A stretch of 64,000 nt of DNA from a virus: positions 13,211 to 77,210 of IMG/VR virus record IMGVR_UViG_3300020129_000672, one strand, 5' to 3'. The notes below the pieces were generated by a model. That model had not been told where the DNA came from and did no database searches. It was given only the letters and a program-made list of their open reading frames with translations. Shown in pieces: positions 30,841 through 62,279 of this stretch (positions within the stretch are counted from its first letter, which is position 1; every line of letters begins with the position of its first letter). A program made the translations under genes and the position numbers.

Positions 30841-32613
30841 ATGCCAGCCATAGCCGTACCTGTAACGGACGACATCTTCGCAAAGTGTATCCCCAATTAC
30901 TCGTTGGGGACCAAGATGTGCACCGGTCTGACGTTGACCGAGCTGTCCCCGACGACCGTTGATGAATGGACGGCCATCTATACCGACGAGAGCGGTAAGT
31001 GGCGGTTGATGGGAGCGCTGATCGAAAGCGATTTCATCGGCCGATCGTGCCAGACCCGGCAGAATACGCTGTGGGATTGGATCAGTCAGACGGCCCGGGC
31101 GTGGGACAGCAAGCGACTTTCGATCAGCGGTGTCGACCGCGGGATTCGCGAGGTCGCGCCGTATGTGAAGATGGGCCGCAAGGGCATCATCAATAACAAT
31201 TACTGGTCGGTCACCAACGGGGCGGCCGGCGGTGGTACGAGTCCGAATAACAGCAGCACCTACACTCATCACTTTGATCTGACGAGCCAAACGGGTATTC
31301 CGCCGGGGGATGTGGGCGAACAGTCGGGGTGGTTTACCAACAAGATCCCGATCTACATCCGTGGCAAAAACACCGGCAGCGGCGTGGTAACGACCACCGA
31401 GTGGGAGATCTTGGATTCTGACGTGCTGAACGACACGACGGTCCGTGTCTACTGCATCGACAAGAACACTGCGAGCTTCCTCTCCAGCGGCCATCTTCAG
31501 GTGCCGATCACCGGTCTGGCCATGCGCGGCACCCCGCGTGTCAGCGACTACGAAAGCTATTGCGCGCAGGTGCCGGGCATCAATCCAAACCAGCAGGCGC
31601 TGTTCTGGATCGATAGCACGCGTTGGACACTCTGCGTCGATGAGGAGATGGAGAAGCTGATGGCGATGATCCGGGACAATAACCCGCTGTACAAACAGTA
31701 TGGCGATGTTCCGTCGGTCGAGCTCAACCGGCAGATCCTCGAGGACTTTCAGAATCGGTTGGTCAACCAGTTTTTCTGGGGCAAACCCCTGCCGAACCAG
31801 ACGGCCGAGCTGTGGAAGAATCTCGATCTGATCAAGACGCCGGACGGCGCGATCGTCACCGACTTCTTCGACCTTCCGGATACGCTTGGTCGCAACATGG
31901 GTCGTCGCGCGGCGGCCGTTGGGATGTACGAGCAGCTGGCGGAGTGCAGTCGGATCAAGGATCTGGGCGGCCTGGCGCTGAACATTCCGGAACTCCTGGG
32001 TGAGCTCTATCTGATCTGGCGAACCCGGATGGATAATCGGGTGGACGCCAGCGTGATCGAGCTGGTGACGTCTACGTCTTACGCGCCGCTTCTGCGTCAA
32101 GGGTTCTTTAACTACATGCAGTCGAAGTACAACGGGGCGATGCGGATTAATTTCGACGGCAGTGACATTCTGAAGCCTAAGCGCCTACCCGGTGGCTTTA
32201 CCTTCAGCGAGATCGATGTCGATTACCCGGCGGGTGTGACGGTCCGGATCGTCACCAGCCTGGCGTTTGACGATTTGTTGGACGCCCATGTGCGAGCCGC
32301 CTCCGGCTTGGAAGACGCTGGTCGCTGGGTGTTGATCCTCGACATCGGGAACTCGATGTACATGTCGGTCCTGGAGAGCAACACGGTGACCAACAGCTCG
32401 GGCGATCTTTCGGTCTTGAGTCAGCTCAACCAGACTCTGCTGTGCACCATGAAGGTGCCGAAGAAAAAGCAGACGATGAAGAGCATGAAGTACACGTTCG
32501 TCAACGAATGCCCGGGCGCCTCGCTCTGGATCGAGGGGATCGCCAACCAAGTTCCGGAGCATTGTGCGCCGGTCGGGGACGTGACGGATTTGGCGGGCTC
32601 GCTCAGCGACTAG
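30841..32613 (+). CDS. major capsid protein
   Basis: 590 aa after the scaffold and before a strong terminator; long helix ending FFWG. Confidence 0.75.
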   Translation: MPAIAVPVTDDIFAKCIPNYSLGTKMCTGLTLTELSPTTVDEWTAIYTDESGKWRLMGALIESDFIGRSCQTRQNTLWDWISQTARAWDSKRLSISGVDRGIREVAPYVKMGRKGIINNNYWSVTNGAAGGGTSPNNSSTYTHHFDLTSQTGIPPGDVGEQSGWFTNKIPIYIRGKNTGSGVVTTTEWEILDSDVLNDTTVRVYCIDKNTASFLSSGHLQVPITGLAMRGTPRVSDYESYCAQVPGINPNQQALFWIDSTRWTLCVDEEMEKLMAMIRDNNPLYKQYGDVPSVELNRQILEDFQNRLVNQFFWGKPLPNQTAELWKNLDLIKTPDGAIVTDFFDLPDTLGRNMGRRAAAVGMYEQLAECSRIKDLGGLALNIPELLGELYLIWRTRMDNRVDASVIELVTSTSYAPLLRQGFFNYMQSKYNGAMRINFDGSDILKPKRLPGGFTFSEIDVDYPAGVTVRIVTSLAFDDLLDAHVRAASGLEDAGRWVLILDIGNSMYMSVLESNTVTNSSGDLSVLSQLNQTLLCTMKVPKKKQTMKSMKYTFVNECPGASLWIEGIANQVPEHCAPVGDVTDLAGSLSD

Positions 32614-32640: not shown

Positions 32641-32675
32641 ACCCGGCCGCCGCCGCAGCAGCGGTCGGGTTTTTT
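32641..32675 (+). terminator. intrinsic terminator after capsid gene
   Basis: acccggccgc/gcggtcgggt stem followed by a T-run. Confidence 0.75.
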
Positions 32676-32679
32676 GCAG

Positions 32680-33024
32680 ATGACGACTTGGAATACTGGT
32701 TTTAATCCGACTCGCATTGTTCCAACGAACATATGCGGGGAGAATACCGTGCAGTTTCCGGGTATCGTCGTGTGGGGCAACAGTTCAGTCAGGATTCCGG
32801 ATGGCCGGTTTGGAGTTTCGTACGCCTATGGATTTGGTACGGCTCCCGGATCGACCGGAAGCTTTTCAATCGTCAGTGGCCTACCGCCTGGCATTAGCAT
32901 TGATTCGGGAGGAAATCTTTCAGGCACCCCGAGTGGCAGTGGTCTCTATACGTTTGATGTGACGCTAACAAACGCTGCGGGCACGCACACCGTTCCGGTC
33001 GAACTTTTGATTAATCCGCCATGA
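32680..33024 (+). CDS. putative Ig-like (He_PIG-type) virion protein
   Basis: SGLPPGISIDSGGNLSGTPSGSGLYTFDVT. Confidence 0.75.
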   Translation: MTTWNTGFNPTRIVPTNICGENTVQFPGIVVWGNSSVRIPDGRFGVSYAYGFGTAPGSTGSFSIVSGLPPGISIDSGGNLSGTPSGSGLYTFDVTLTNAAGTHTVPVELLINPP

Positions 33025-34073
33025 GCACCCCTTTTATTCCCATTCCACGACCGCCGAACACTCAAAACTGTGAGGATGGAATTTACGCCGGCACCCTGCC
33101 GAGTCAGATCTGCAACCCGGATGTCATTTGCAATCTCCGGTGTATTGATGTGGTGATCGATGATCGTCAGGAGTTTGATACGCCGCTCAATGGTGGGGTC
33201 TACAGTTACACCATTCAGAAGACGCGCGGTAGTAGTCCGATTGTGTGGACGATTACGACCGGTGCACTCCCGGCCGGCCTGGCGCTCAACGCATCAACCG
33301 GAGCGATTACAGGGACGGTGACTGAGACGGAAGATAACACTGGATCGGTCGAGTTCACGGCCACTAATTGCGATACCGGAACCAGCACCATCACCTGGGA
33401 ATGGACGGTTGGTGGATGTACTGCACCGTCCGATCTGTTGCCGGCGTCGGGTGATATTGCTCAGCCGGTGGTTGGTGTGGACTATACGGTTGCGTTCACC
33501 GCCAGCGGCAGTGGTCCTTTGGTGTTCACCGTTACCTCTGGAGCGGCTGGTCTAACAGCGGCCGGTATTACGCTGGCGCCGGACGGGACACTCACCTGGG
33601 CGGGGGCGGATGTTGATACGGCTGAGCATGTGTTTGAGGTGACGGCCACCGGGCCCTGCGGATCGGTCGCTGAGACATACACAATTCAAGGGACTGAGCC
33701 GGTGACGCCGAAGACTCTTCGTTGGGGTAACCTCGCCTATCCTGGAGCTCCGGCAGCGGCACCGACATTCGTCGAGGGCGACTTTATTAGCGGTGGTCCG
33801 CTATTCAGCGACTACACTGAGGCGGGCGCAACGGCGGCCGTCACCCGCGTTGGATCCTACATCTTCCCGTCGATCGCCGGTACGCGTCAAGTGATGTGGA
33901 TCGCCGACAGTCTTTTGGTGGGGACCGAAACCTTCATGGTTAGTGGTCTTCCATGGGGACTCGACCCGGGAGATAACACCTATCTCCAATCACTGACGAT
34001 CGCCGGGGTGGCCGGAAAGGTATTTTTTACCAGCGATCGCAATGGCGGAAGCTATACCGTAGATGTCACATAA
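33021..34073 (+). CDS. virion protein with two Ig-like domains and a C-terminal adapter-like domain
   Basis: GALPAGLALNASTGAITGT; C-terminal domain is paralogous to 34063..34581. Confidence 0.75.
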   Translation: MSTPFIPIPRPPNTQNCEDGIYAGTLPSQICNPDVICNLRCIDVVIDDRQEFDTPLNGGVYSYTIQKTRGSSPIVWTITTGALPAGLALNASTGAITGTVTETEDNTGSVEFTATNCDTGTSTITWEWTVGGCTAPSDLLPASGDIAQPVVGVDYTVAFTASGSGPLVFTVTSGAAGLTAAGITLAPDGTLTWAGADVDTAEHVFEVTATGPCGSVAETYTIQGTEPVTPKTLRWGNLAYPGAPAAAPTFVEGDFISGGPLFSDYTEAGATAAVTRVGSYIFPSIAGTRQVMWIADSLLVGTETFMVSGLPWGLDPGDNTYLQSLTIAGVAGKVFFTSDRNGGSYTVDVT

Positions 34074-34581
34074 GGGGTTCAAAATTCTGGTCGCCCTGGC
34101 GGCCTTGTTGCTGGTTGCCGCCGTTCCGCAAAAGACGGTGGTGATTCCGCCGGTTATTACCGTCACGCCGGCGACAGGCGCACCACCAACCCAAGTGTCG
34201 GTCAAACCGACGACCATAAGGTGGGGAAATTATCTTTGGGCCGGCGCGCCCGATGCGGCCCCGAAATTCGTGGAGTTTGATCTGGCAGGCCGAAGTCCGT
34301 TGTTCGTCGATTGGAATCGGTCGGTGGCGACCAATCTGGTTGGAGACTATCTTTTCAAGTCAAGGCGGGGAGCCCGTCAGGTGTTTTGGGTGGCTGATCA
34401 GTTGCTTAAAAATCGACAAACCACATTTACCAGCAGTGGATTTCCCGTCGGGTTTGATCCCGGGGACGATCAGGCACACCAATCGCTGACCATTCAGAAA
34501 GTGCCGGGTAAGGTCTACGTAACGTCCGATCGCAATGGCGGGAGTTATGTGGTGAGTGTAAAGCAAACACCTAATCGATGA
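34063..34581 (+). CDS. signal-peptide-bearing paralog of the preceding C-terminal domain
   Basis: MSHKGFKILVALAALLLVAA; shared RWGN...RQV.W.AD...DPGD...QSLTI...GKV..TSDRNGGSY.V.V. Confidence 0.75.
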   Translation: MSHKGFKILVALAALLLVAAVPQKTVVIPPVITVTPATGAPPTQVSVKPTTIRWGNYLWAGAPDAAPKFVEFDLAGRSPLFVDWNRSVATNLVGDYLFKSRRGARQVFWVADQLLKNRQTTFTSSGFPVGFDPGDDQAHQSLTIQKVPGKVYVTSDRNGGSYVVSVKQTPNR

Positions 34582-37316
34582 AGACCGTTCGTCTGTTCTT
34601 TTTTTTTCTCCTGATTTTTCGGGCGTTTCCGCAAGCGACTCCCCCGCAGTATCCCTATCCTGATCCGCTTCCAATTTCGGGCGACATCCCGTCCCTCCAT
34701 AGCCTCAAGGTAACGAAGGCTATCACCCCTACGGCCTATGAGGATGAGCGGCCGGTCGTGTGGGATGATTTTGTTGGTGGTGGTTATCACACGTGCCTCA
34801 ACGGAACAGAGCGCGATAATATACTGCAGGGCCGCCGGAAGGAGGGGATGCTCGTTTGGGTGGCGTTCGACAATCATACATACCGTTTGGCGTCGGACCT
34901 GACGACCTGGACCGATCTGGGGATCCTTGCCGCCGGTGGGAGTGTCACCACGATCTACACCGGAAACGGCACATTGGCAGGAAACAGAACGATCACCGGA
35001 TCGAACTTCAATCTCGATCTGGTTGGGCTTGGAAATTTTAGCGCGCTGGCCAATACATCGATCACACTGGCGGCGCCGACCATCACGCTCAACGGTGGGA
35101 GTTTTACTCGGATCAACAACAGCGGGCCCTATCCCTTTCTGTTCGCCGCCGCTCCGTCAGTCGCCGGATCAACCCATCAATTGCTGGCCCGCAATCCTTC
35201 GACCGGGGAAGTGACATTCACACCCGACGCAACGATCGGTGGGTCGTCCGGTGTTTATCGCGGCGTGACGTCTGGGACGCCCGGATTTTGGGTGGCCGCC
35301 ACTTCTGCACTGACCCCTCCCTACAGTAGCGCCAGCCAGCCGCCAGAGGCCACTGTGGCGGTCCTGAAGTTCCCGTCCAACTCGGTTGGCAACGATACGC
35401 TCCAGTTGGGCGACAGCACGACCGGCATCGCGATCAAGCGAAAGGACGGAAGCGCCGTTCAGGCGGATGACATCACGGCCGGTCAGTACATTCTGTTTAC
35501 CCGGGCGGGCACCCTATCTGGCGCCCACTGGACGTGCGAGTCGTGTGGCCAGGGAGGATCACCCTCACCGGACGTCAACGGCGTGGTGTCGGTCGATACC
35601 ATTTCGGAGCTCATCAATTCGACGGCCAACGTGGTTATCACTCGCGGGTACTACACCATAGGTGACGGCGGTCACGGAGCTTATCGGCTGGATACTGCGG
35701 CGGTTGACGCTACGAACACGGTGACGACCTTCGAGGCGGCGACCGGTCGGTACTTCCTGATGCAAAGTGGATCGATCAGCGCCTTGCAGGCGGGGGCGCC
35801 GACTGATGGAACGACCGATGCCGGTCCGTACCTTCAGGCGCTGCTCGATGCCTGTCCGAACCTGACGGCTCGGATTGATCCCTTTCCCTACCGGGTAGTC
35901 GGACAGCTGAACCCACCAGATGACGTCAAGGTGATTGCCCGCGGTGCGACTCTCACGATCGAAACGACGTCTGAGTGCGGAGTGGCTGTCAGTTCTAATT
36001 TCATCTGGGACGGCGGAACGGTCGTTGATGCTGCTCAGGACGGGGGATCGTCCGATAATGTACACTGTCCGTTTCGATTCGGGGATTATAGCGGAGTATC
36101 CAATGCTGGGGTCAGCAATTCGACGATCCGAAATGTTACTTTTTACTCAACTGGCTATGACGGAGTCGGGGCGCTTGTCACTCAAAATAGCCATAACATT
36201 ACGATTGAACATTTTGAAATCCCGAACAACAGTTCGATGGGTGGCGGGATCGAAGTGCACTGGGGATATGTGACGTCCGGAAATGCCGCGTTAGGTACCA
36301 GGCACCCGCATGGAGTGAAGGTCAGCCAGGGACATATTGGAAACCTCACTCACTCCGATTCGGCCGGTCTGATCGTCTCCGCCAGTTACAGCCTGCAGTA
36401 CGACAATGTGACGATCGACCAGTGCCGGTATCCGATCTTTGCCGTCTGTGGTGATTTTGGGTTTCATTACTCGGGCTTTCAGGGGCAGCAACTTGGTTCG
36501 GTTGTATATCGGACTGTCACCTGTCTCGATTCATTGTTGGCCGGTGCGTACGTCCGAGGCTTGGATTCCGACTCGATTCAGCGGACGGTCAATTACGTGA
36601 TCGACAGCTGCACTCTAATCGGCCCGAACGCCGGGGCCGGTTTGGGCGGCCTGTATCTCGATAACGTCCGGAACCTGACGGTCCAGAACTCGGTTATCTC
36701 CGTTCATCAATATGGGACGGTCCTGACCAACGGGTGTTCAAATATCGGTCTGATCGGAAATCTTTTCACGACCAACGCACTGGGTGGGATCGTCCTATCT
36801 GACCCGAGTAGTAGTGGGGTGACCGTCAGGGGTAATCGGCTGCAGAACAATTGTGCCAGCCTGAGTGGCACTAATGCGGCGGCCATCAGAATCGTTGCTG
36901 GCAGCAACCACCGGATCATCGATAACGACATTGGAAACCCAATTACCGAGGCCAACCAGGAGGTGGGCATTCTGTGTATTCCGCCGGCCAGCAACATTAC
37001 GATTACGGGCAATAACGTGATCAACGTGAAGGGTGGAGGAGTTAGCGAAGGTTACTATCTTGGTAATGCTGCAGACTTTGGTCATCTCTGGCTAGTATCT
37101 GGAAATCAATCCAACTCAACTACTCTGATGGCCGTGCCGCAGAATCTCCCGTTCTTGGTCAGGGGTAAGTACCGAACTTTTGCGGGCACCACCACACCGA
37201 GCGTTGGGACATTTATCAAGGGAGATCGTGTGGAGTTCAATGAAGCGACTTCTACGCCGTTTGCCATTATCTGCACGACTGGCGGATCAAGCGGGAGCTG
37301 GGCAACAATTTACTGA
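34578..37316 (+). CDS. tailspike/depolymerase (beta-helix) with N-terminal signal peptide
   Basis: MKTVRLFFFFLLIFRAFPQ; ER..I.QGRRKEGMLV domain; RGYYTIGDGGHG; DGTTDAGPYLQALLD and right-handed beta-helix repeats. Confidence 0.8.
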   Translation: MKTVRLFFFFLLIFRAFPQATPPQYPYPDPLPISGDIPSLHSLKVTKAITPTAYEDERPVVWDDFVGGGYHTCLNGTERDNILQGRRKEGMLVWVAFDNHTYRLASDLTTWTDLGILAAGGSVTTIYTGNGTLAGNRTITGSNFNLDLVGLGNFSALANTSITLAAPTITLNGGSFTRINNSGPYPFLFAAAPSVAGSTHQLLARNPSTGEVTFTPDATIGGSSGVYRGVTSGTPGFWVAATSALTPPYSSASQPPEATVAVLKFPSNSVGNDTLQLGDSTTGIAIKRKDGSAVQADDITAGQYILFTRAGTLSGAHWTCESCGQGGSPSPDVNGVVSVDTISELINSTANVVITRGYYTIGDGGHGAYRLDTAAVDATNTVTTFEAATGRYFLMQSGSISALQAGAPTDGTTDAGPYLQALLDACPNLTARIDPFPYRVVGQLNPPDDVKVIARGATLTIETTSECGVAVSSNFIWDGGTVVDAAQDGGSSDNVHCPFRFGDYSGVSNAGVSNSTIRNVTFYSTGYDGVGALVTQNSHNITIEHFEIPNNSSMGGGIEVHWGYVTSGNAALGTRHPHGVKVSQGHIGNLTHSDSAGLIVSASYSLQYDNVTIDQCRYPIFAVCGDFGFHYSGFQGQQLGSVVYRTVTCLDSLLAGAYVRGLDSDSIQRTVNYVIDSCTLIGPNAGAGLGGLYLDNVRNLTVQNSVISVHQYGTVLTNGCSNIGLIGNLFTTNALGGIVLSDPSSSGVTVRGNRLQNNCASLSGTNAAAIRIVAGSNHRIIDNDIGNPITEANQEVGILCIPPASNITITGNNVINVKGGGVSEGYYLGNAADFGHLWLVSGNQSNSTTLMAVPQNLPFLVRGKYRTFAGTTTPSVGTFIKGDRVEFNEATSTPFAIICTTGGSSGSWATIY

Positions 37317-37319
37317 GCC

Positions 37320-38024
37320 ATGAGGATTTTCTTTCTTGCCGCATGGCTGACTGCTCAATCGGTGCTGGCCGACTGGAAGTCTGACTTGGTCGTTTACTGG
37401 ATGACAGGTCACCCGTCGATCGCCATTACGTCGTCCAATATCTTTGGCATCGAGCACGCGGCCGGATCGTTCACCGGCGTCAGTATCGGCGATCAGACGG
37501 GCCCACTGTCCGGCCTGTGCACCGGGTTCGTCACCGACGGTGTTTGTGGCGGTAGTGTTCAGAATTGCACGTGGACCAGGCGATACCGCAATTCAACCAA
37601 CGACGCATTTCTCTACCGAACGTGTCGTCCGCTTTCCAGTGGTATCTCCTACGTGGCGACCAACACTGTTCCGGGCACGCCTGTTCAATGGTTGTCAATC
37701 GTCGATCGCGTGTGGTACACCGGAACGGTCTTTGGCGACTGTTGTGGTTTTCCCTACACGTTTCCTGACGGGATGGTTGCCTACTACGGCGTACTCTATT
37801 TTGACGGCCACATGCCGGTGGCTGGCGACAGCGATAGTCCGTTGTTTGCCCGGAACCAGGATGGAGTTCATTGGGACTTTGCTGGCGCGGTGGCCGGTAC
37901 TGACAGCGGTCATGTGGTGGCGTACTTTCTGTGGCCGGAGGGAGTTCAGTACCGACCGTCTTCACCGGCTGTCATTTCAAATGTTGGTCTATCGCAACTT
38001 TTCAACTCTGATCCCGATCGTTAA
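37320..38024 (+). CDS. exported hypothetical protein (possible trypsin-like fold)
   Basis: Signal MRIFFLAAWLTAQSVLA; GDSDSPLF resembles GDSGxP. Confidence 0.55.
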   Translation: MRIFFLAAWLTAQSVLADWKSDLVVYWMTGHPSIAITSSNIFGIEHAAGSFTGVSIGDQTGPLSGLCTGFVTDGVCGGSVQNCTWTRRYRNSTNDAFLYRTCRPLSSGISYVATNTVPGTPVQWLSIVDRVWYTGTVFGDCCGFPYTFPDGMVAYYGVLYFDGHMPVAGDSDSPLFARNQDGVHWDFAGAVAGTDSGHVVAYFLWPEGVQYRPSSPAVISNVGLSQLFNSDPDR

Positions 38025-38028
38025 ATTT

Positions 38029-38412
38029 ATGGACCAACCAATACCCGCGCCACTACCGCCATCACCGATTCCGCCTGGTACGCCAACGTCCGATGTAATC
38101 AGGTACCTGATTGGATCGAGCAATTTAGGAAGCTCGATCAAGAGTATCCTGGTGGCGATTGTTGTTGCCTGGTTCGGGTCGGACAAGACCCGGTCGTTCT
38201 GGAACAACACGAGCCTGACGGCCGTGACCGACAGCCACGTTGCTCTGGCGACGAATGTGCTGGACCGGCTTGACCGGATGGAGACACTGATGGCTCGTCC
38301 GCGCACCCAGGGAGGAATGGGGGTGGATCTGACGGACCCGCGGAACAGCCGGCCTGGACCGTTCTACCCACCGCTGCCATCAACCAACCGCCTGCTTCGA
38401 AAGGTTCCGTGA
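38029..38412 (+). CDS. single-TM membrane protein (holin-like candidate)
   Basis: ATG 38029 inside track ORF 37444..38412; SILVAIVVAWF. Confidence 0.55.
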   Translation: MDQPIPAPLPPSPIPPGTPTSDVIRYLIGSSNLGSSIKSILVAIVVAWFGSDKTRSFWNNTSLTAVTDSHVALATNVLDRLDRMETLMARPRTQGGMGVDLTDPRNSRPGPFYPPLPSTNRLLRKVP

Positions 38413-38415
38413 CCG

Positions 38416-38730
38416 ATGGCTCCGCCCGTCAAACAAAACACCAATGTCGTTATCACGACGTTGATCTTGGCGGCGTTTATTCCAACGCTTTCTTCGATTG
38501 CGACTTATATTCAGAGCCGGGCATCGGCCGCTACGGTTGAAAAAGTACACGAGCTGGTGAATAGTAAGAGCGATGCCCAGACCGCTCAGATTAAGGAACT
38601 CATTCAGGCCAACAAAGATCTGGCATCCAAGCTGGCGGTGCTTGAAGAACGGCTTAGGCCGATACCGGAATCGACCAAGACTACGACTTTAACTGACGAG
38701 CAATTAAATCGCCTGATAAATAGAAAGTAA
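38416..38730 (+). CDS. TM plus coiled-coil protein (holin-like candidate)
   Basis: N-terminal TM followed by a coiled coil. Confidence 0.6.
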   Translation: MAPPVKQNTNVVITTLILAAFIPTLSSIATYIQSRASAATVEKVHELVNSKSDAQTAQIKELIQANKDLASKLAVLEERLRPIPESTKTTTLTDEQLNRLINRK

Positions 38731-38734
38731 TTAT

Positions 38735-38911
38735 ATGTCTCTAGGATTATGCTTTTGGATTTTGATGATGTTATGGCTTGTGTTTGGACTTTGGTCTAAC
38801 TGGCCAGCCACTGGATCATCTGGAATTCGACCGTTGGGTGGAACCTTGTTACTATTTTTTGTAATTTTTATACTTGGATGGGCTCAATTTGGGCCTCCTG
38901 TTCATCGGTGA
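38735..38911 (+). CDS. small two-TM membrane protein (58 aa, below track cut-off)
   Basis: MSLGLCFWILMMLWLVFGLWSNWP...GGTLLLFFVIFILGWAQFGPPVHR. Confidence 0.75.
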   Translation: MSLGLCFWILMMLWLVFGLWSNWPATGSSGIRPLGGTLLLFFVIFILGWAQFGPPVHR

Positions 38912-38913
38912 CT

Positions 38914-39753
38914 ATGACCGGAATATACATGATTAGGAATACGATGAGCGGTAGACAATATGTCGGATCTGCGTTGAACATACATCAACGGTGGCATTCT
39001 CATCGATCTTTGCTTTCCAAAGGAAAGCATCACTCGGTTACTTTGCAGCGTTCATGGATAAAACATTCTCCCGAGGCGTTTTTGTTTGAAATATTGGAGC
39101 AGGTTGAGGATGCCAACCAACTTGTTCCTCGTGAGCAGTTCTGGATCGACAAACTTAACTCAGCTTGCCCGCGTACTGGATTCAATATATCACCAACGGC
39201 TGGAAGCCCGCTTGGAGTAAAGCACTCTTTTGAAACTCGTGCCAAGATGTCAGCAATTAGAAAAGGAGTAAAGTTTGGGCCACAAAGCGACGCTCACAAA
39301 GCCGCGTTGAGAAAGTCGAGACTTGGAACAAAGCATTCGCTTGCAACTCGATGTAAAATGTCAGCAGCGCGAAAGGGTGTTCCAAAACCTCCGTTTAGCG
39401 AGGATCACAAAGCTGCAATGAGCTTAGCAAGGTTACGGTACGAAAGCGATACGGGAAGAACGGCTATAAGAAACAAATCGGATCATATGCGTGAGATGGT
39501 TAGGGCATCTAAAATTAAGCGTTATTCCACACCAGAAGGGATTGAAGAATTAAGATCTATGGCCATAAAACGGTGGGCAATTAAAAGATTATCAGGAGAA
39601 CCGCTTGGCCGTCCGATGTCTGATGAAACAAAGCTTAAATTAAGCATTGCTGAGAAAGGAAAAATGACAGACCAACACAAAGCTGCAATCGCGGCAAGCA
39701 ATCGAAGACGATCAACTTCAAATCACGCATTCGGTCCACCGATCCATAACTAA
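38914..39753 (+). CDS. GIY-YIG homing endonuclease with NUMOD3-like repeats
   Basis: TGIYMI...YVGSA...R...H; REQFWI; FNI; HSFETRAKMS, HSLATRCKMS, MSDETKLKLS; AT-rich. Confidence 0.92.
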   Translation: MTGIYMIRNTMSGRQYVGSALNIHQRWHSHRSLLSKGKHHSVTLQRSWIKHSPEAFLFEILEQVEDANQLVPREQFWIDKLNSACPRTGFNISPTAGSPLGVKHSFETRAKMSAIRKGVKFGPQSDAHKAALRKSRLGTKHSLATRCKMSAARKGVPKPPFSEDHKAAMSLARLRYESDTGRTAIRNKSDHMREMVRASKIKRYSTPEGIEELRSMAIKRWAIKRLSGEPLGRPMSDETKLKLSIAEKGKMTDQHKAAIAASNRRRSTSNHAFGPPIHN

Positions 39754-39842
39754 GTTGGTCCGCTATCGGACCGATATGCTATTGAATGAAAAGCTTTTCC
39801 TCAGATTCGAAAAGCAACATACTGTCGGTACTAATCGATGGT

Positions 39843-40130
39843 ATGGCGACGAATAAAAAAATGACGGCCAGCCACCGGGCGTTTGTCTGGCTGGCGCTTG
39901 GTTCATTGATCGGTGGAATGATCGATGTACGAGGTTCGCTCGCGCCGTTGGCCAAACTGCCGCTTGTGCTATCGACCTTGGAGGAACACACGGCCGAACT
40001 GAAGGAACTCCGAAAATTACGGGAGGAAGACCATCGGGCGTTGGAGGAGGTTAAGGATATTTTGCGGCGTAACAAGCTGGCGGCCGGCCAGGATGAAAAA
40101 GGCCTATCAACCGTTAAATATTCCGAATGA
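39843..40130 (+). CDS. TM plus coiled-coil protein
   Basis: FVWLALGSLIGGMI followed by a coiled coil. Confidence 0.55.
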   Translation: MATNKKMTASHRAFVWLALGSLIGGMIDVRGSLAPLAKLPLVLSTLEEHTAELKELRKLREEDHRALEEVKDILRRNKLAAGQDEKGLSTVKYSE

Positions 40131-40251
40131 AGACCAAGAAGTTAAAGAAGCGTCGACCGGCTGTTCAGCGGGATATCCCAAAGCCGGTTCAACCTGGAAC
40201 GATTCCGCCGTCGACCCCGATTGATCCGGATAATCCTAAGAAAGAAATTGT

Positions 40252-43200
40252 ATGAAAGCTAAATATCTATTTTTAATTTCAATGCTGCTGATGACCGCAC
40301 TGACGGTCGTTGGGCAGATCACGCCACCGCAGTACCCGTATCCGGATCCGCTGCCGGCCTCTGGTGATATTCCTAATCTTCACAGTCTGAAGGTGACAAA
40401 GGCGCTGAGCACAACCGCCTATGAGGATGAGCGTCCAGTGGTGTGGGATGATTTCATTGGTGGTGGTATGCGATCGGTCGGTTCGACGAACGAGCGGAAT
40501 GCGATTGTTCAAGGTCGACGGAAGGAGGGAATGATGGTGATGGTGAAGTCTGTAAGTCCGGATACCAATGCTTTTGGACTTTACATGCTTCTGAAGGGGA
40601 TCAGCAACACCAATTGGTACAAGATCGCTGACATCACGACGACCAACGGTTTTAACATACCGTCCCTGAAGTCGGTGAATATCTTTAACAGCGACGGTCA
40701 GTTGACGACCAACCGATTGCTGAGTGGCGTTGGGACGTATTCGCTGGGTCTGGCGGGACTCACGGGGTTCAACACGTCGGCCGATAGTTCTCTAATACAG
40801 GCAAACAACCAGAATGTGGTTGGGCTTAATAACCTGACACTAGCGTCGCTCGATCAACTTGATTTATTGGCGCCAAACATATCGATCACCAGTTCGAACA
40901 GTTTTTTGTCGCTCGACCATAACTCAACAACGGTCGGTGCCTATGGTACTAATGGTCTGATTATATTAACTCCGGCAGTTCATGCGACTACCGCCACTGC
41001 CGGGCAGGTCCTGACGTTGATCGACACGAATGGGATTGCTGATTTTGCAACGATCACCGGTGGAACAAACGTCTTTAACATCACGTACACCACGAACTAC
41101 GTGAATGATAACTTCGCCAACACCGACCTGACGTTCACGGGGAACCGGACGCATGATGCGGCGGGGAATAGTTTAGCTATTGATAACATTTCTACTCTTC
41201 AATTATTTGGATCAAGTTTGGCTCAAATTAGATTTCCTTTTATTCAAGTAGACTTGTCCGGAGGAGGAGAAGGAGAAGGATTGTCAATTGCTAATTCTCC
41301 AAATATATCAATAGATGGAGATGGAATGTTCAACGGAGGATTTTTTGTTGGGTCTGGTACTCCAATGTATGGAATAACTCTCGCCAGTAGTGGCGATGTT
41401 ATTTCTCTTGACGTCGATACAACGCAAGGAATAGCATTTAAGAACAAGCAAATCCATGATGGTGTCGCCACTCTAGGTCAGGTTTGGACACTAACGAACG
41501 TCACTACTGGGAAAGGTGTTTGGGCCAACCCGCCCGCCGGACAGAACTTCGCGAATGCGGATTTGACGGCGACTGGTGATAGATACCACGATTTCACTGG
41601 GTATCGCTTAACAATTAACAGCCCTCGCGGTTTTTCAGTAAATTCTATTGATGACACTTTAAGTATTGGTTCTAACTACGAATTAGATATTTCAACTCCA
41701 GATGTTAATAACACAGCGTTGGTTGGCCAATACCTTCAGCTTCAAACTGCTGACGCGGGTGCTGTGGAATACCAAACCATCTACTTCAAAGGCACCGCAA
41801 CCGACTCCGGTGGCGGAGCGTTCGTTGCCGCAACGGCCTCAATCGTTCCGGCCTACAACGATTCGTCTGATCCGCCGGAGTTCATGCAGTTCTACATGAA
41901 ACCGACGTCCGATGCGGTGGCTGATAGTCAACTTCAATTAGGTGACAGTGGAAGTCCTCATTACATAACACGTAAGGATGGCGTGACGCACCTGGCTGAT
42001 GGTGATTTCAAAGCTGGCGCGACGATCATGTTGACGATGGTCGATAGTGGGGCAGGCGCTCATTGGGTGTGCGAGAGTTGTGGAGGTGGCGGTGGACAGA
42101 ACATAGCCAACGCCAATCTTACATTTGATGGTTCTCACACAACCGATGCTGCCGGTTATGATTTCAGCTTAAATAATGTCGCTAATCTTAGTCTTGGAGG
42201 TTCTAGCTCAATATCTGCATCTTTGGGCGGAGGTGTTCAAGCGCAAATTAGCAGTTCGGCCGCGCAATTCCTAATCGTTACAAATACCATTCAGATGAAT
42301 ACTCTGACTGGAGACATATATATGGTAGATCAGGATGTATATGGCGGTAGTTCAACTAATGGAATGGTGTTGACGATGATTGATCAAACAACCGGTAAAG
42401 TGGGATTTAGGAATGCGTCTGGTGGCTCATCAACTAATTTTGCAAACGCCAACCTCACAGCGACCGCCAGCCGGGTCCACGATTGGGCGGGCCACAATCT
42501 GACGATCGAGAATCTGCTGTCGTTCACGATGAGCGATCTTACTGGATCATACATTCAGGTCGGGCCCGCCATTTATCTTTCTAACGGAGCTGGCACGAGC
42601 TTTATCAACATGACGGACAGTGAGACGGAGATTGGTGGAACCAGCACGAACGGTATCAGGCTATTTTCCAAGGGGGTCAATAATGCCACGGTATCCACCA
42701 ACTGGGTGTGGACGTTGCTGAACGCCGCGACGGGCGCCGGTGAATGGGTGGCGGGCAGGAATATGTTCGATGCAAATGGAACACTGGCGGGGAATCGCGT
42801 GGTTTCTGGCGGTGGTCATAGCCTTACCTTCCAAACCGCGCTCTCTGATTTTAATGTGCTGGCGACGAATGTCATTTCCCAGGCGAGCTTGAACAACACG
42901 ATTAATGGCGCATTGATCGGGATGACCGCCAGTTCGTCGGTGACGGTCAATACGCCACTTTTCACAATCAACAACAGTAGCGCCGATGACTTCCTTTTTA
43001 CCTCGACGCCTAATGACGGTACGGACGCCGATCATACGCTCGAACGAAACCCATCGACGGGCGAGGTGCGGTGGAATACCGGCCGGTTTGTCTTTCCGCG
43101 GACGGGCGTCCCGTCGGTCGCCGCCGGTACGGGTGCTGGTACTGGGCCGACCGTTACGCTCGTCCGTCAAAGTGATTCGGCGTTCACCCTCAGTGTCATT

Positions 43201-43431
43201 CCCGGATCGACGCCGGCTGTCAATGCGACGGTTGCGACCGTGACGTTCGCCAGCGCCTATGCGGCGGCCCCTCATTGGTCGCTGGCGGCCGGTAATGCAG
43301 CGACCGCTCTACTGTCGGGCAACAGCGCCTGCTACGGTCAATCGACGACCACCACCTTTGTGTTGAAGAGCGGCCCGACGGCGCTTACTCAAAGTACGAC
43401 CTACCTTTTTGAAGTGATAATCGTAAAGTAA
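40252..43431 (+). CDS. long tail-fibre/adhesin-like protein with N-terminal signal peptide
   Basis: MKAKYLFLISMLLMTALTVVGQ; N-domain near-identical to that of 34578; repeats N(F/I)ANx(D/N)LT...; shared fibre module LQLGDS...RKDG...D..AG. Confidence 0.8.
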   Translation: MKAKYLFLISMLLMTALTVVGQITPPQYPYPDPLPASGDIPNLHSLKVTKALSTTAYEDERPVVWDDFIGGGMRSVGSTNERNAIVQGRRKEGMMVMVKSVSPDTNAFGLYMLLKGISNTNWYKIADITTTNGFNIPSLKSVNIFNSDGQLTTNRLLSGVGTYSLGLAGLTGFNTSADSSLIQANNQNVVGLNNLTLASLDQLDLLAPNISITSSNSFLSLDHNSTTVGAYGTNGLIILTPAVHATTATAGQVLTLIDTNGIADFATITGGTNVFNITYTTNYVNDNFANTDLTFTGNRTHDAAGNSLAIDNISTLQLFGSSLAQIRFPFIQVDLSGGGEGEGLSIANSPNISIDGDGMFNGGFFVGSGTPMYGITLASSGDVISLDVDTTQGIAFKNKQIHDGVATLGQVWTLTNVTTGKGVWANPPAGQNFANADLTATGDRYHDFTGYRLTINSPRGFSVNSIDDTLSIGSNYELDISTPDVNNTALVGQYLQLQTADAGAVEYQTIYFKGTATDSGGGAFVAATASIVPAYNDSSDPPEFMQFYMKPTSDAVADSQLQLGDSGSPHYITRKDGVTHLADGDFKAGATIMLTMVDSGAGAHWVCESCGGGGGQNIANANLTFDGSHTTDAAGYDFSLNNVANLSLGGSSSISASLGGGVQAQISSSAAQFLIVTNTIQMNTLTGDIYMVDQDVYGGSSTNGMVLTMIDQTTGKVGFRNASGGSSTNFANANLTATASRVHDWAGHNLTIENLLSFTMSDLTGSYIQVGPAIYLSNGAGTSFINMTDSETEIGGTSTNGIRLFSKGVNNATVSTNWVWTLLNAATGAGEWVAGRNMFDANGTLAGNRVVSGGGHSLTFQTALSDFNVLATNVISQASLNNTINGALIGMTASSSVTVNTPLFTINNSSADDFLFTSTPNDGTDADHTLERNPSTGEVRWNTGRFVFPRTGVPSVAAGTGAGTGPTVTLVRQSDSAFTLSVIPGSTPAVNATVATVTFASAYAAAPHWSLAAGNAATALLSGNSACYGQSTTTTFVLKSGPTALTQSTTYLFEVIIVK

Positions 43432-43438
43432 CCACACT

Positions 43439-43720
43439 ATGAAAAAACTGATCATTGCGTTTTGTGCTGCTCTGTTGGTCGTCGCCGTTAGGGCGGCAGA
43501 TACCGCGGTTGAAACCGTACCACCCCGACCGAAGGTCGTTCGATCGGCGCCGAATAAGGTGGAACTGCCGGTCACCCGTGCGGAGTTCAATGCGCTGAAG
43601 GCGGAGGTCGCGCAATTGAAGGCCGCTAGCAGGCGACCGACCGTTGCCGTACCACCGGCACGGACGGCCAGGACCAATCAGGTGGCGGTCCCACGTAAGC
43701 CGCCGGTCAGCCCTCCTTGA
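43439..43720 (+). CDS. small exported coiled-coil protein
   Basis: MKKLIIAFCAALLVVAVRAA. Confidence 0.65.
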   Translation: MKKLIIAFCAALLVVAVRAADTAVETVPPRPKVVRSAPNKVELPVTRAEFNALKAEVAQLKAASRRPTVAVPPARTARTNQVAVPRKPPVSPP

Positions 43721-43724
43721 ACCT

Positions 43725-43892
43725 GTGCCGATCAAGTCACAGAAGGAGTGGAAGTTTCTGGCGGTAAATCACCCAGATGTGCTGCACAAGCTGCAGCAGG
43801 ATCAGCCGGTGGTTTATTCCAAACTGCCGGTCGCGGTCGGCCAGAAGGATCGGCTCAGACCGCGGTTGAAGGCCTGGCGCAAGCGACGTTAA
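43725..43892 (+). CDS. small conserved phage protein
   Basis: (M)PIKSQKEWKFLAVNHP...KLP pattern. Confidence 0.55.
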   Translation: MPIKSQKEWKFLAVNHPDVLHKLQQDQPVVYSKLPVAVGQKDRLRPRLKAWRKRR

Positions 43893-43928
43893 TTGCCTTC
43901 AGGTTGGGCAGGCCCTACTGTTTCAAGC

Positions 43929-44249
43929 GTGAAAAGAATTTTAATCGTCCTCGGCCTGACCGTCTTTTGTGGCGGATGCTTTTCTGGTTGCGCGACCGGC
44001 AGTGCCGCCAAGTTGGTTAAGGCATTAGCAAACGATCCGGCCGGCTATTCGCTGAACGTGGATACCCCGTGGGGCAAAGTTCATTTGGTTCGTGCCAACC
44101 CCGGAAGCAATACTCCACCATACAGATTGAGCCCGGATGGAGGGGTTCAAGTGTTGGAGAATATCCAAGGAGCAGCGCCCGCGACGTCCAACAACGACGT
44201 GTTGATGCAGGCGATTCAGCGGATCCCGGTTCAACCACCAGTTCAGTAA
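43929..44249 (+). CDS. lipoprotein
   Basis: KRILIVLGLTVF...FSGC lipobox; TTGCCT-17-TACTGT-7-GTG. Confidence 0.7.
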   Translation: MKRILIVLGLTVFCGGCFSGCATGSAAKLVKALANDPAGYSLNVDTPWGKVHLVRANPGSNTPPYRLSPDGGVQVLENIQGAAPATSNNDVLMQAIQRIPVQPPVQ

Positions 44250-45418: not shown

Positions 45419-46186
45419 GTGACCTACCTAGATTTACTTCAGCTGGTAAAGCCACAGGTTTGGCCGGAGGAGATTGCGACGAACCTGATCGCGCAATTCC
45501 GCCAGGACTTTCGGACCGCCTTGGTCGACCTGCAGGGGAATGTCAAAATGCTGCAGGTCGGTCAGTCGGACACCAAGGATTTTGGTAGCACCTTCTGGCG
45601 GTGTAACGCCACCTATCTGTACATTCCGCCGCTCGTGCGGTTCTCCCGCGTTCAGATCGTGGATCAGACAGATCCGGATCCAAAGATCTGTTGTGTTACC
45701 CGGGCCGACCCGGTGTCGGCCGATCGGATGGAGTGTCATGAGCGAACGTGCCGAACGCTCGTTCTGCCCGATACGGGTGAGCCTAACAGTGATGGGTTTT
45801 ACACACCAGATCCGGCGCTTGATCCGACGGTTGATCCATCGAGCTACGAGACGGCGATCGTCAACGGCAACCTCGCGATCTGGCCGGCCATCCCGAGCAC
45901 TAAAGGAGTGCAATATTCGTACTCTGGGGTGAAGCGTACTTGGCTTGATGCCGACCCATTGCCTGATCTGTGGGTGATCGACAACGAGTGTGACCCGGAG
46001 ATCATTGACTACATCTGCTGGTTCTTGCGGCGGATCAAAGACCGGTGCGACCTCGCGAAGTACCAGACGGCTGATCGGGAATTTGTCGCCCGTCGGCAGA
46101 ACATGATGAGCGATCTGGCGCGGGACGAGAAATGGCGGTTGGATCTCCTGCGTCCGTGTGCCATCAGTTGCCCCAATAGTTGCTAG
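45419..46186 (+). CDS. putative head-tail adaptor
   Basis: MTYLDL start and IWPAIP motif typical of podovirus adaptors; position; TTCCTA-17-TACATT-6-GTG. Confidence 0.55.
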   Translation: MTYLDLLQLVKPQVWPEEIATNLIAQFRQDFRTALVDLQGNVKMLQVGQSDTKDFGSTFWRCNATYLYIPPLVRFSRVQIVDQTDPDPKICCVTRADPVSADRMECHERTCRTLVLPDTGEPNSDGFYTPDPALDPTVDPSSYETAIVNGNLAIWPAIPSTKGVQYSYSGVKRTWLDADPLPDLWVIDNECDPEIIDYICWFLRRIKDRCDLAKYQTADREFVARRQNMMSDLARDEKWRLDLLRPCAISCPNSC

Positions 46187-46189
46187 CTT

Positions 46190-47131
46190 ATGCCAGTTCC
46201 AGACGGAGCCCTACCACCGGTCTTCACCGGCCCGCTTAACCCAAGCAGCGACATCTGCGATGCGTTCACCCGGTTGATCGGCCTGCGTGAGCAGCTGGGG
46301 ATTCTCATCAGCTGGATGTTCAAGGACGATGGGACGATCAATGACGGTCTCAATGCCGAGCTCTACAAGTGGATTTACGGCCCACTGACAGCCAGCGGGA
46401 CGGGCGGGGAGTATGTACTGACATCGACCCTGCCGTACGCCAATCCCTACACGATTAACTACCCGGGTCGAATCGTCTTCTTCATCGCCTCGCACGACTC
46501 GCCCGACAGTTCGGTCGGCAGCACGATCAAGCTCTATCTGATTGACCCACTGCCGTTGCTCAACCTTTACGGCGTGTCGCTCGAGGCGGGTGATATTCGA
46601 AACGGCCAGGTGGTGGGGGCGATTTTTGACGGAACGAACTGGCGGGCGTTTACCAGCATCAGCCGGATTTCGCTCGACCAGCTTGAGGGTGGAGCAGAGG
46701 GTGATTTTCTACGCAGCCGAGATGTTGGCGGAAAACAACACGTGGTGTCGGAAGGGTATTACCGAACGCCCGATGATGGACTGGTGGCAGTTCCGGCCGC
46801 CGGATCGGCCGCGACGTTCTCGCATGGGTTCTCCAAGAAGCCGTTGTTCTACGGTGTGGATCTGGTCTGTATCGCGACCGATCTTGGATACTCGGCCGGG
46901 ACCGGACCGGATGATGCGGACGAAGTTCAGGTGGCAGCCACCTCTTATTTTGATTCAACCTTCAATGATCAGAATTCGCCTACCATTTCCGTCAGCCCGA
47001 CGACCATCCGGATGATTCAACGGCCGGTCGGTCAGCCAAATGCTTTACGGATCGCCAACAAGACGACGGGCGCCCAGTCGGAGATTGATCCAACTAAATG
47101 GAAACTTCGCGCCTGGGCAGTCGCACGATGA
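46190..47131 (+). CDS. tail fibre-like protein (no signal peptide)
   Basis: L.AGDI.NGQVV.AIFDGTNW fibre module; C-terminal HG...DLGYS.G...KWKL domain. Confidence 0.65.
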   Translation: MPVPDGALPPVFTGPLNPSSDICDAFTRLIGLREQLGILISWMFKDDGTINDGLNAELYKWIYGPLTASGTGGEYVLTSTLPYANPYTINYPGRIVFFIASHDSPDSSVGSTIKLYLIDPLPLLNLYGVSLEAGDIRNGQVVGAIFDGTNWRAFTSISRISLDQLEGGAEGDFLRSRDVGGKQHVVSEGYYRTPDDGLVAVPAAGSAATFSHGFSKKPLFYGVDLVCIATDLGYSAGTGPDDADEVQVAATSYFDSTFNDQNSPTISVSPTTIRMIQRPVGQPNALRIANKTTGAQSEIDPTKWKLRAWAVAR

Positions 47132-52930: not shown

Positions 52931-55900
52931 ATGACGACCGCCGCCGATTCGGTTGGATCACCGGTCGGTGATCAGCCAGTTCCATTACCGCCCTTCCCGG
53001 GGACCGATACCGCAACGCCCCTTCCGTCACTCAGCGCCGAGCAGTTGGCGACCGCTCTGTACGGCTATCAGAAGCCGCCACCGCAGGAACGGCCGATCCC
53101 ACTTCCGCCGATCACGCAGCCGACCAAAACAATTGCCGATCAACAGGAGGTCCTCCAACCACCGCGTGACATCGGATTTGCCGATCGCTTAGGGGCGGCC
53201 ATTCGTGAGGCAGCCAGTCCGTTGATCGGCCAGACGCCGGTCCAAGCCGCCCAGGCAGAGACGGCGCAACAGCGGCTGCTCCCTGAATTTCGCGGCGGCC
53301 GATCACTGGCGCAAGTTCAGGCTGAGACGTACAGCCCTCAGGGTGACGTGTTGCCTGATCGCACCAAGGCACCACTCACCAGCTCGTTCTACCGCGGCGG
53401 CCGGCAGTTGGAGGACACCGGTCTGGCGCTCGCCCAATGGCTGGCAACGATGGCCGGCATAGAGACGCCCGCTATAGACGCGCAGAAGGCGTACAACGCG
53501 CAGAAGATCAGTGAGAACCCGCCGCTCATTCACGGACCGGATGAGGTTCGGAACCTCAGTGACGCTCTGACGTACGCGCTGGAACAGGTGGGGCAGAACG
53601 CACCAACCGCCGCCCCAGGAATGGTTGGTGGATTTGGCGCTGGTCAGATCGCGGCACGGACGGCCGGTAAGATCGGAGCTGAAGCGTTGGCCAACCGAGT
53701 GGCGGCCGGCCAGGCGATTGGCGCGACCGGCGGAAGCATCGCACAAGAAGTCGGGAGTATTTTCAGCGACGCGACTCAGGACAACCCGGCTGATCGTAAT
53801 CGCCTGACCGCCCTACTGTCGCTCGCACACGGTATTCCGGCCGGCCTGCTCGATGCGGTGGGGGAGAAACTGGCACTCGGTCGGCTGCCGGGTGGGCACG
53901 AGGTAGCTAGTGGCCCGCTCGAAAACTTCCTGAGCTCGAAAGGCAGCAGGTCGTTCTTTGTCAATGGGGTGGCGCGACTTGGTGACGCCGGGCTCGAGCA
54001 GTTTGTGACGCAGGCGCCGACCGAATATTTCCAGACGTTGATCGAACAGTCGGGCAAAGCGTCGTCCGATCTGTTGGGTCAGGATAAGTTTTGGGCCCAG
54101 TACTTCGATCAACTAACGAGCCCTGAAGCGCAGTCAGAACGCGCACAGGCGGCACTCGGTGGAGCGATCAGTGGTGTTGCTACCGGTGTGGCGTTCCAAC
54201 TGCCGGGTGTGGTGGGGAAGATTGCTGACGGTCGGGCGGCCGAGCGGGCGGTCAGCAACATTCGCCAAGAGCTCGATCGTCAGGCGTCCCAGCCAAAGCC
54301 TGAGACGGCTGGCACGCCCACCCAGTTCCAGACCGCCCCGGCGAGTGCCACCCTTCCTGTCGCTTCGGCTCAATCGGGACTGACGGCCGAACAATCGACG
54401 TTCGGGACCGTAACACCGGTCGATCAGGTGATCTTGCGTAACCGCTTTGACCAAGCAGTGGCGGCTGATCAGGCAAGAGCCGCTCAACCGGTCGCGCCGG
54501 CCGGTCCTCAAATCGAGACCGCCCCACCGACGGCCCTCCCTGATTTCAGCCAAGGTGCACCAGCCATCATGTCGTTGCTCGATCATCCGGTTGAGCAACT
54601 CCAACGAACGGCCGATCAGCAGGAGGCTCAAACTCCAGCTCCCCCCTCAGCCCCTCCCCTCCCGGGCTCGATCGAATACCAGGCGGCGATCAGGCAGGCC
54701 CGCCAGAACGCTCAGACTGCCACGCCGGCGACCGATCAGCCGGCAGTCGTGCCCAACATACCACCCGCCCGGCCGGTCGCTCAGGCGGTCAGCCAGGGGC
54801 CACAGGCGGCCATCCCGGCCGCTCCCTCACCGGCACCCGTCAGGCAGAACCAGGTAAAGCAGCAGGTGGCGAACGATCAGGCGTCGACCGTCAGGGCCGA
54901 ACAATCACCGGCGGTGGCGACCGATACCGAAGCGGCTGTCACGTACTTCCAACAGAATCCACAACACGCCCAGGCGGTGGCCGACTACATGGCGGTCGGT
55001 GATTACCGGGCGGCGGTTGATCGGGCGGTTGAATCCCTGCCAGAGACGGGTGGTGATGGTGATAGCTTTGTTCGTCAGCAACTGCAGGACCGGCTCTTTC
55101 AGTATGTGGTGCGTAAGAAGGATCAGGCGTTTAGCCAGAAGGGCGATCGGCCGACGCTCAAGACCGGCCCCGGCGGATTCCCGCTGAAGCAGGAGATCAG
55201 TCGGGCGGTCAAAGACTTTCTACGGAGTGAGCCGGCGCAGAACATCACGGCGGAGAACAAAGTAAACCTGACGGCCGACGTCACGGAAGGTCGGCGCTCA
55301 GCGGCTGAGACGCTGGCGGCCAAAGAGAGTCGGCCGGTGTTGACCGACGAGCTGAAGATCCGTGACCGCCTCCTCCAAGGCCTGACCGCCGGCAGTGTCG
55401 AACAGCTGGGACACGACGTGGTGGCGCAGAATGTTATTGGCCGAATGACCGGCGGTGGGACGGTCAACCTGACGACCGCCGGTACTGACACAGTGCCATG
55501 GCAGGCGGTGTCAAAGTGGGTGGCGACGAACGAGCGGTCGGTTCAGCAGAAGCTTCACAAGATTATCACCCAGCTACAGGCTGATCATGATGTTTCTTAT
55601 ATCAGTCAGAGCCTGATCGCCGCCTATGCCAATGCGCTGACCGGCACCGGTCGGGGGATGACGATCGATCAGGTGCGGCAGGCGGTGACCTCCACCTTCG
55701 GTCGGCTGCCACCGAATGTCCTGATCGTGAACGACCGGACGCTCGCCAGCCGAACGGGCGAGCCGCTGAAGGGAATGTACGTCGGTGGCCTGACCGACCG
55801 AATTGTTCTCAACGCGGCAAACCTCAACAACCCGCTGGATGCAACGATCGCCCTGCTGCACGAGACGCTCCACCGAGCGTGGGACTTGCCGGCCGTTCAG

Positions 55901-62267: not shown

Positions 62268-62279
62268 TTGTGATTCGGG

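Follow-up and report, generated by a model that had tools for sequence, protein, structure and literature searches.

Tailed-phage assembly is taught as a wholly cytoplasmic process. The lack of a signal peptide has been used as an argument for the phage origin of a fibre-like gene (PMC6199706), and no paper dealing with signal peptides of tail fibres came up in literature searches. Cellulophaga phage phi18:3 (NC_021794.1, Pachyviridae), a cultured podovirus of Bacteroidota, encodes three proteins, gp085, gp086 and gp087, which begin with a leader followed by glutamine (...GYSQ, ...VSAQ and ...LNAQ, respectively). Their genes immediately precede those for small membrane proteins and an endolysin, and the annotation of all three as virion or tail proteins is given as 'based on experimental MS/MS proteomics' (MS/MS, tandem mass spectrometry). 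None of nine other MS/MS-recorded virion proteins of phi18:3 that were inspected has a leader, and a literature search found nothing commenting on the leaders of gp085-087. Here we describe the same order, a leader and then Gln, in a tailspike (P0003) and a fibre (P0005) of an uncultured tailed phage, whose genes lie in a window of 64,000 nucleotides corresponding to bases 13211-77210, and thus to most of the genome, of the 77,210-bp IMG/VR virus record IMGVR_UViG_3300020129_000672. Judged from their sequences, both proteins are quite likely exported by the general secretory (Sec) pathway and cleaved before this Gln.

Other described proteins resemble P0003 in part. The phage tailspike depolymerases Fri1 gp49 (Acinetobacter; 6c72), Klebsiella K2-2 TSP (8iqe) and CBA120 TSP2/TSP3 share with it a parallel beta-helix body and a modular N-terminal part; they are, however, cytoplasmic, carry known particle-binding N-domains, and have no match to it at the sequence level. 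WceF of Pantoea stewartii (6tgf) is an exported trimeric tailspike-like beta-helix enzyme acting on the polysaccharide of its own cell (PMC7949094), but it is encoded by a bacterial exopolysaccharide (EPS)-cluster gene, bears a twin-arginine (Tat) signal, which exports folded protein, instead of a Sec signal, and has no fibre modules. Among signal peptidase I substrates of Bacteroidota, Gln at position +1 is the rule, being found in a mean of 71% of substrates (PMC5837995), and phage-encoded proteins following this Q-rule have been reported for Porphyromonas gingivalis phages, their function being given as unknown and tail parts not being mentioned (PMC10367356).

The two genes and their leaders are placed as follows.

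34578-37316, + strand: P0003, tailspike, 912 aa
34578..34631, + strand: signal peptide of P0003, residues 1-18, predicted cleavage before Gln19
40252-43431, + strand: P0005, fibre, 1059 aa
40252..40314, + strand: signal peptide of P0005, residues 1-21, predicted cleavage before Gln22

The P0003 leader carries K2 and R5 followed by 9 hydrophobic residues, that of P0005 K2 and K4 followed by 16, and Gln comes next in both. The signal-like peptides that the first-pass annotation, made from the letters alone, had noticed on these two proteins are thereby confirmed, each with a basic n-region, 9-16 hydrophobic residues and Gln; by their predicted extent, such hydrophobic stretches are too short to anchor in a membrane. 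Positions -3/-1 are V/G in P0005 and A/P in P0003, homologues mostly having G, A or S at -1. The closest homologue of P0005 (P0024, 1067 aa) likewise begins with a leader and then Q, and signal-like N-termini across the 77-kb genome cluster at 34063-43720. A true start further downstream was looked for in P0003 and none was found in the first 60 codons, in which the initial ATG, overlapping the stop codon of the preceding gene, is the sole in-frame ATG, GTG or TTG; the next ATG stands at residue 91, and starting there would cut away most of the conserved domain described below.

Conservation of the leaders in homologues had been set beforehand as a test of the signals. When residues 1-125 of P0003 served as the query for HMMER against 1.8 billion representative proteins, 297 hits were obtained, about 40 clusters of which (<50% mutual identity) align from residue ~5 and keep the whole layout of leader, linker and domain. 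The aligned set consists of 36 homologue clusters, all less than 50% identical to one another, and in 34 of these a hydrophobic leader ends right before the aligned Gln. Mean pairwise identity in this alignment is 22% for the leader, 47% for the 24-residue linker that follows it and 41% for the folded domain. A leader constrained in character but not in sequence, standing beside a conserved peptide, looks like a targeting signal, and these patterns are strong evolutionary evidence for predicted export signals on the fibre and tailspike proteins.

The segment behind the leader, which had been noted as a near-identical domain of the two proteins, is indeed shared: P0003 and P0005 are 65% identical over residues 2-96 (BLASTP E 4e-40). 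In P0003 it divides into two parts.

34632..34703, + strand: Pro-rich linker, residues 19-42, Q-x-(T/V)-P-x-x-Y-P-Y-P-x-P-L-P-x-x-G
34704..34931, + strand: core N-domain, residues 43-118, folded part ~62-118, AlphaFold2 (AF2) pLDDT ~90

The folded core resembles the trimerisation domain of collagen XV/XVIII (Foldseek probability 0.93-0.96, E 0.2-0.5), with VIA giving Z 6.9 and 6.0 over 53-57 residues. This multiplexin domain (3n3f, 3hon) is a ~55-residue fold that is matched over its whole length; identity is 13-16% at Z 6-7 and E 0.2, a resemblance that does not imply kinship. The N-terminus of ORF18 from Geobacillus virus E2 is another structural match of the core domain (Z 5.9), and those in a viral structure library are tail fibre and structural proteins. 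With these middling fold scores, the domain is read as a putative trimerisation nucleus of the kind typical of virion fibres.

The core domain occurs widely without a signal. More than 100 further HMMER hits align only from query residue ~43 and have the domain at their own residue ~5, with no leader or linker. Such leaderless proteins include SJC03_82 of a Bacteroides phage, JA29_146 of a Dickeya phage, phrog_23630, and tail-module proteins of Dickeya and Erwinia jumbo phages, which have the core domain and no signal. In this group the motif ERDAI...RRKEGMLVYV...Y.L...W heads tail-module proteins with variable C-termini, and the group differs from P0003 and P0005 in that the domain starts from about residue 5 with neither leader nor Pro-rich linker before it. 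The same core domain is found in gp60 and gp61 of Cellulophaga phage phi18:1, both marked in GenBank as virion proteins by MS/MS, and its presence in these leaderless, MS/MS-recorded proteins makes the family a virion fibre family. The phi18:3 proteins gp085-087, in contrast, have no detectable sequence similarity to P0003 and P0005, no YPYPxPLP linker and no core domain; without such kinship, the leader-Q trait recurs independently.

The linker is distributed differently. Two contigs are syntenic with the window, metagenome contig L003 and IMG/VR contig L006/L012, their capsid-position protein being ~41% identical, and in the equivalent slot they have two signal-bearing fibres (477 and 810 aa). 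A leaderless protein of 309 aa encoded by the same relatives has a protease-like domain (GGDSSSP) fused before the YPYP linker and core. The 24-residue YPYPxPLP linker thus occurs either with a signal or with a fused N-domain, and on this distribution it is the linker, and not the core domain, that appears to be the element accompanying the signal. The shared N-domain put forward earlier as one unit is real, but it consists mostly of a trimerisation-like fold used without a signal elsewhere, the linker being the part that goes with the signal.

The bodies of the two proteins differ, and a further tail fibre, P0007, is relevant to both.

35265..35558, + strand: shaft module of P0003, residues 230-327, HWTCxSC at its end; also in P0005 and weakly in P0007
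35865..37067, + strand: right-handed parallel beta-helix of P0003, about residues 430-830, from Pfam and the AF2 model
40315..43431, + strand: mature P0005, with linker and core domain, then some five repeats of the shaft module and a beta-rich C-terminal end
46190..47131, + strand: P0007, 313 aa, tail fibre without a signal, encoded in the tail gene block

P0003 matches the Pfam family Beta_helix (E 1.2e-10, residues 674-822), and an AF2 model built on 36 homologues has a long parallel beta-helix over ~430-830, the nearest folds of which, by Foldseek (E 1e-7 to 1e-5), are AlgE epimerase A-modules, phage tailspike depolymerases and WceF; sequence searches of the PDB found no match to any solved structure. 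The modelled helix is a putative polysaccharide depolymerase. P0005 has no recognisable enzyme domain. Among the 36 signal-bearing family members the C-termini vary, with a beta-helix in 12, a pectate-lyase-like domain in 6 and GH28 in 2. Further modules common to P0003 and P0005 were found by BLASTP, residues 236-327 of the former corresponding to 522-614 of the latter (46%) and 126-212 to 838-939. The fibre module claimed for P0003, P0005 and the protein at 46190 is therefore shared by the first two, but its link to the third is weak, as BLASTP of the P0003/P0005 module against P0007 gave no match and a profile alignment reached E 0.007 over 76 columns. In L003 the positional homologue of P0007 has a Phage Tail Collar domain (E 5.8e-13), and with such a counterpart the particle has a conventional fibre too.

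Two further signal-bearing proteins are encoded next to the tailspike.

34063..34581, + strand: P0002, 172 aa, ~22-aa signal peptide, Pro-rich spacer and a domain in common with P0001, the protein encoded upstream
37320..38024, + strand: P0004, 234 aa, signal peptide and putative trypsin-like serine peptidase

Leader anatomy, conservation, architecture and gene neighbourhood are seen in the sequence itself, and from them we infer export, cleavage, periplasmic folding and, above all, docking. In the explanation that we favour, P0003 and P0005 would be trimeric tailspike- and fibre-type receptor-binding proteins made as Sec preproteins, from which signal peptidase I would remove the 18-21-residue leader, exposing a Gln that Bacteroidota would cyclise to pyroglutamate. 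In the periplasm, the small N-terminal domain would nucleate the folding and trimerisation of the proteins, and the P0004 protease and P0002, both signal-bearing, would be produced alongside, their genes being located among holin- and spanin-like genes. Once the holin had opened the inner membrane, particles built in the cytoplasm would meet the periplasmic trimers, which would dock on the tail via their mature N-terminus, the conserved YPYPxPLP peptide. A conserved N-terminus with variable C-termini reads as the usual layout of particle-bound receptor-binding proteins, and docking is favoured by this layout, by the relatedness to virion fibres and by what is recorded for phi18:3, the last as indirect support by analogy. 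Export followed by docking on particles at lysis is nonetheless a tentative reading, plausible but short of probable. The wider proposition, that Bacteroidota tailed phages build particles in two compartments, with cytoplasmic heads and tails onto which Sec-exported, pyroglutamate-trimmed and periplasm-folded fibres and spikes are clipped post-holin via YPYPxPLP, is rather unlikely. The first-pass annotation had offered either periplasmic folding with attachment at lysis or display or secretion by the infected cell. With the leaders kept in homologues and no start found downstream, export stands as the best reading, and either fate may follow it, but display at the cell surface and secretion through the outer membrane are unsupported, since models of the C-terminal sorting domain of the type IX secretion system (T9SS; Por_Secre_tail) have no match in the 36 family members in Pfam, nor in NCBIfam at E 0.1.

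If docking is true, virion assembly has an unrecognised final step beyond the cytoplasm, and the prediction, expression and engineering of receptor-binding proteins are affected, for example by oxidative folding and a pyroglutamate end. If the proteins stay free, phages of such hosts carry a lysis-tied periplasmic depolymerase-and-protease toolkit. Either fate can be tested in the cultured Cellulophaga phage phi18:3.

Several points weigh against export followed by docking. The Pro at -1 of P0003 is unusual for signal peptidase I, and about five close homologues with the linker start without a leader. The Cys content of P0003 and P0005 is no different from that of cytoplasmic virion proteins, and the two show no enrichment in O-glycosylation sequons, D(S/T)(A/I/L/V/M/T), which number 0.77 and 0.28 per 100 aa compared with 0.26-0.63 in other virion proteins. 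The phi18:3 proteins gp085-087 could be co-purifying contaminants. The presence of linker and core behind a leaderless protease-like domain in L003 means that a free mature N-terminus is not obligatory, and since the particle already has the signal-less fibre P0007, those that bear signals do not have to belong to the virion. To our knowledge, no mechanism joins periplasmic proteins to tailed-phage particles.

An alternative is that P0003, P0005, P0002 and P0004 are exported but never bound to the particle, forming a late periplasmic set directed at the infected cell's own envelope. Newly made capsule, EPS or O-antigen would then be the target of the depolymerase and envelope proteins that of the protease, with easier lysis and release, removal of receptors from debris, or a block to superinfection as the effect. 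In its favour, holin- and spanin-like genes alternate with all the signal-bearing genes within a single block of distinct composition, and the canonical signal-less fibre lies apart in the tail block (P0007, with the Collar domain in L003). WceF provides a bacterial example of an exported trimeric tailspike-like enzyme, although with a Tat signal (PMC7949094), about 5% of prophage carbohydrate-active enzymes (CAZymes) bear signal peptides (PMC13507307), and the more distant relatives L008 and L009 also scatter signal-peptide and lipoprotein genes across the late block. A strictly kept linker and domain combined with freely varying C-termini is, however, what a common attachment partner predicts and what a free enzyme does not need. 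P0005, moreover, is long and repetitive and has no domain recognisable as an enzyme, the T9SS models of Pfam and NCBIfam gave no sign of a signal for export across the outer membrane, and the phi18:3 analogues are listed among virion proteins. We regard such a particle-free role as possible, though somewhat less likely than docking.

Non-export is distinctly improbable: here the hydrophobic N-terminus would mimic a signal peptide while being a propeptide or assembly element, buried in the tail or cut by a phage protease such as P0004. Phage capsid proteins cleaved by prohead proteases are known to receive signal-peptide calls from predictors (PMC10367356), the protease gene directly follows the tailspike gene, and in L003 a protease-like domain occupies the place of the leader. 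The leader varies freely, though, while keeping charge, hydrophobicity and length, which is the behaviour of a targeting signal and not of a structural contact; the aligned Gln agrees with the signal-peptidase rule of the host; and P0004 has its own leader and conserved Cys, so that it would itself be outside the cytoplasm. An annotation artefact, with true starts downstream or reading frames not expressed as drawn, could draw on the mechanical gene calls and the absence of Shine-Dalgarno motifs at the starts, but is hardly credible given the single start codon in the first 60 of P0003, the ATG overlapping the upstream stop, and the leader in 34/36 clusters.

The signal-bearing neighbours P0002 and P0004 have conserved leaders of their own. 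The P0002 leader is kept in its homologue P0160 (70% identity), and residues 47-166 of P0002 are 54% identical to the C-terminal residues 228-350 of P0001. In P0004 and 7 homologues, His46, Ser171 (G-D-S-x-S-P) and 4 Cys are invariant, the leader being kept in 6/7 homologues; no Pfam match at E 0.01 and no PDB sequence match were found, and the protein atlas places P0004 nearest to trypsin-like clusters (score 0.96, TM 0.6-0.66), which serves as a lead only. The retention of leader, catalytic residues and the 4 Cys fits an oxidising compartment, as far as sequence can indicate one. All members of the P0004 family but one end in LFNSDPDR or a near variant, and several lie on phage-sized contigs (37-56 kb). 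The GGDSSSP of the 309-aa protein of the syntenic relatives (L003:6202-7131; also P0036) recalls P0004; this protein ends directly after the core domain, and the gene after L003:6202-7131 opens with a leader and the same linker-core module.

The other genes around the tailspike and fibre are the following.

33021..34073, + strand: P0001, 350 aa, no signal, immunoglobulin (Ig)-like Pfam He_PIG (E 3e-11)
38029-38412, 38416-38730 and 38735-38911, + strand: three small membrane proteins, read from their translations, no family match
38878..39753, + strand: GIY-YIG/NUMOD3 homing endonuclease in a low-GC island
39786..40130, + strand: 114-aa protein with a hydrophobic segment and coiled coil, resembling L003:12382-12690
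43439..43720, + strand: P0006, 93 aa, N-terminal hydrophobic segment, coiled coil and Pro-rich tail
43929..44249, + strand: lipoprotein candidate, 106 aa, GTG start, lipobox F-S-G-C

The membrane proteins of 38029..38911 are inferred from their sequences to be holin-like or lysis-type candidates. P0006 and the lipoprotein at 43929 read better as a candidate pair of i-spanin- and o-spanin-like proteins, in which case the 'signal peptide' of P0006 would be ordinary; no family model of NCBIfam matches the pair. The earlier statement that the neighbours at 34063, 37320 and 43439 have signal peptides too is accordingly borne out for 34063 (by P0160) and 37320 (by 6 homologues) and given up for 43439 in favour of a spanin. 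The block 32674-44249 has a GC content at third codon positions (GC3) of 0.32-0.68 compared with 0.70-0.79 in head and tail core genes, a lowering as expected of a mosaic, horizontally exchanged region. The homing endonuclease gene, located between both fibre genes, lies in the lowest-GC stretch of the window (38735-39753; GC 0.45, GC3 0.39) and overlaps the 3' end of a 58-aa two-helix membrane open reading frame (ORF).

The record is rated complete and has a 127-bp direct terminal repeat. The genome codes for a large terminase (Pfam Terminase_3), DnaB- and UvrD-type helicases and an integrase, with the head-to-tail gene block on the + strand. We assign the 590-aa protein at 30841-32613, which has no family match, as the capsid-position protein by the position of its gene. 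Neither this protein nor the 1117-aa tail protein nor P0005 has a match among the cultured phages searched, and the lack of a cultured match for the capsid-position and 1117-aa tail proteins makes the lineage an uncultured one. Just one further IMG/VR contig has the signal-bearing form, and pattern scans of GTDB species genomes for the N-domain and the capsid-position protein found no relative, hence no prophage copy or host name.

The phage probably infects a member of Bacteroidota. Its genes show no excess of Shine-Dalgarno motifs upstream (18% vs 13% random), which is compatible with Bacteroidota but not specific. The Gln after the leader is kept within the P0003/P0005 family and in phi18:3; as a host marker, however, the Q-rule is weakened by P0160, which has no Gln after its leader, and by the P0004 family, which is probably cleaved before DW, and Gln at +1 may partly be a family trait rather than a host rule. 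The integrase and look-alikes of P0004 were examined for host assignment and proved uninformative, and tRNA genes, looked for in the genome, were not found.

Beyond the syntenic contigs, the more distant L008 and L009 (31%) are without the P0003/P0005 family, and their late block still has signal-peptide and lipoprotein genes. In L009, the N-terminus of the protein at L009:11181-13115 matches 45419-46186 of the window, in adaptor position, and the protein has a calcineurin-like metallophosphoesterase domain (E 2e-12); it is followed by genes for a 453-aa lipoprotein and a 315-aa leader-Q protein. Leaderless proteins encoded after the capsid-position gene (33021-33080; L003:4651, 5107 and 8590) share the N-terminal motif M-x-x-x-F-(I/L)-P-(I/L/G)-P, behind which come Cys-rich residues and then He_PIG Ig-like domains, and the proteins with this motif may be a head or tail decoration family sharing an anchor. 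The right end of the window holds an integrase and a gene resembling PAPS reductase (61053-63209, - strand); the phage may be temperate, though the pattern scans of GTDB species genomes gave no relative. The tail block is closed by an ORF of 2722 aa (52931-61099) with zero Cys and no Pfam or PHROG match, which, judged by its position, may encode an ejected internal protein.

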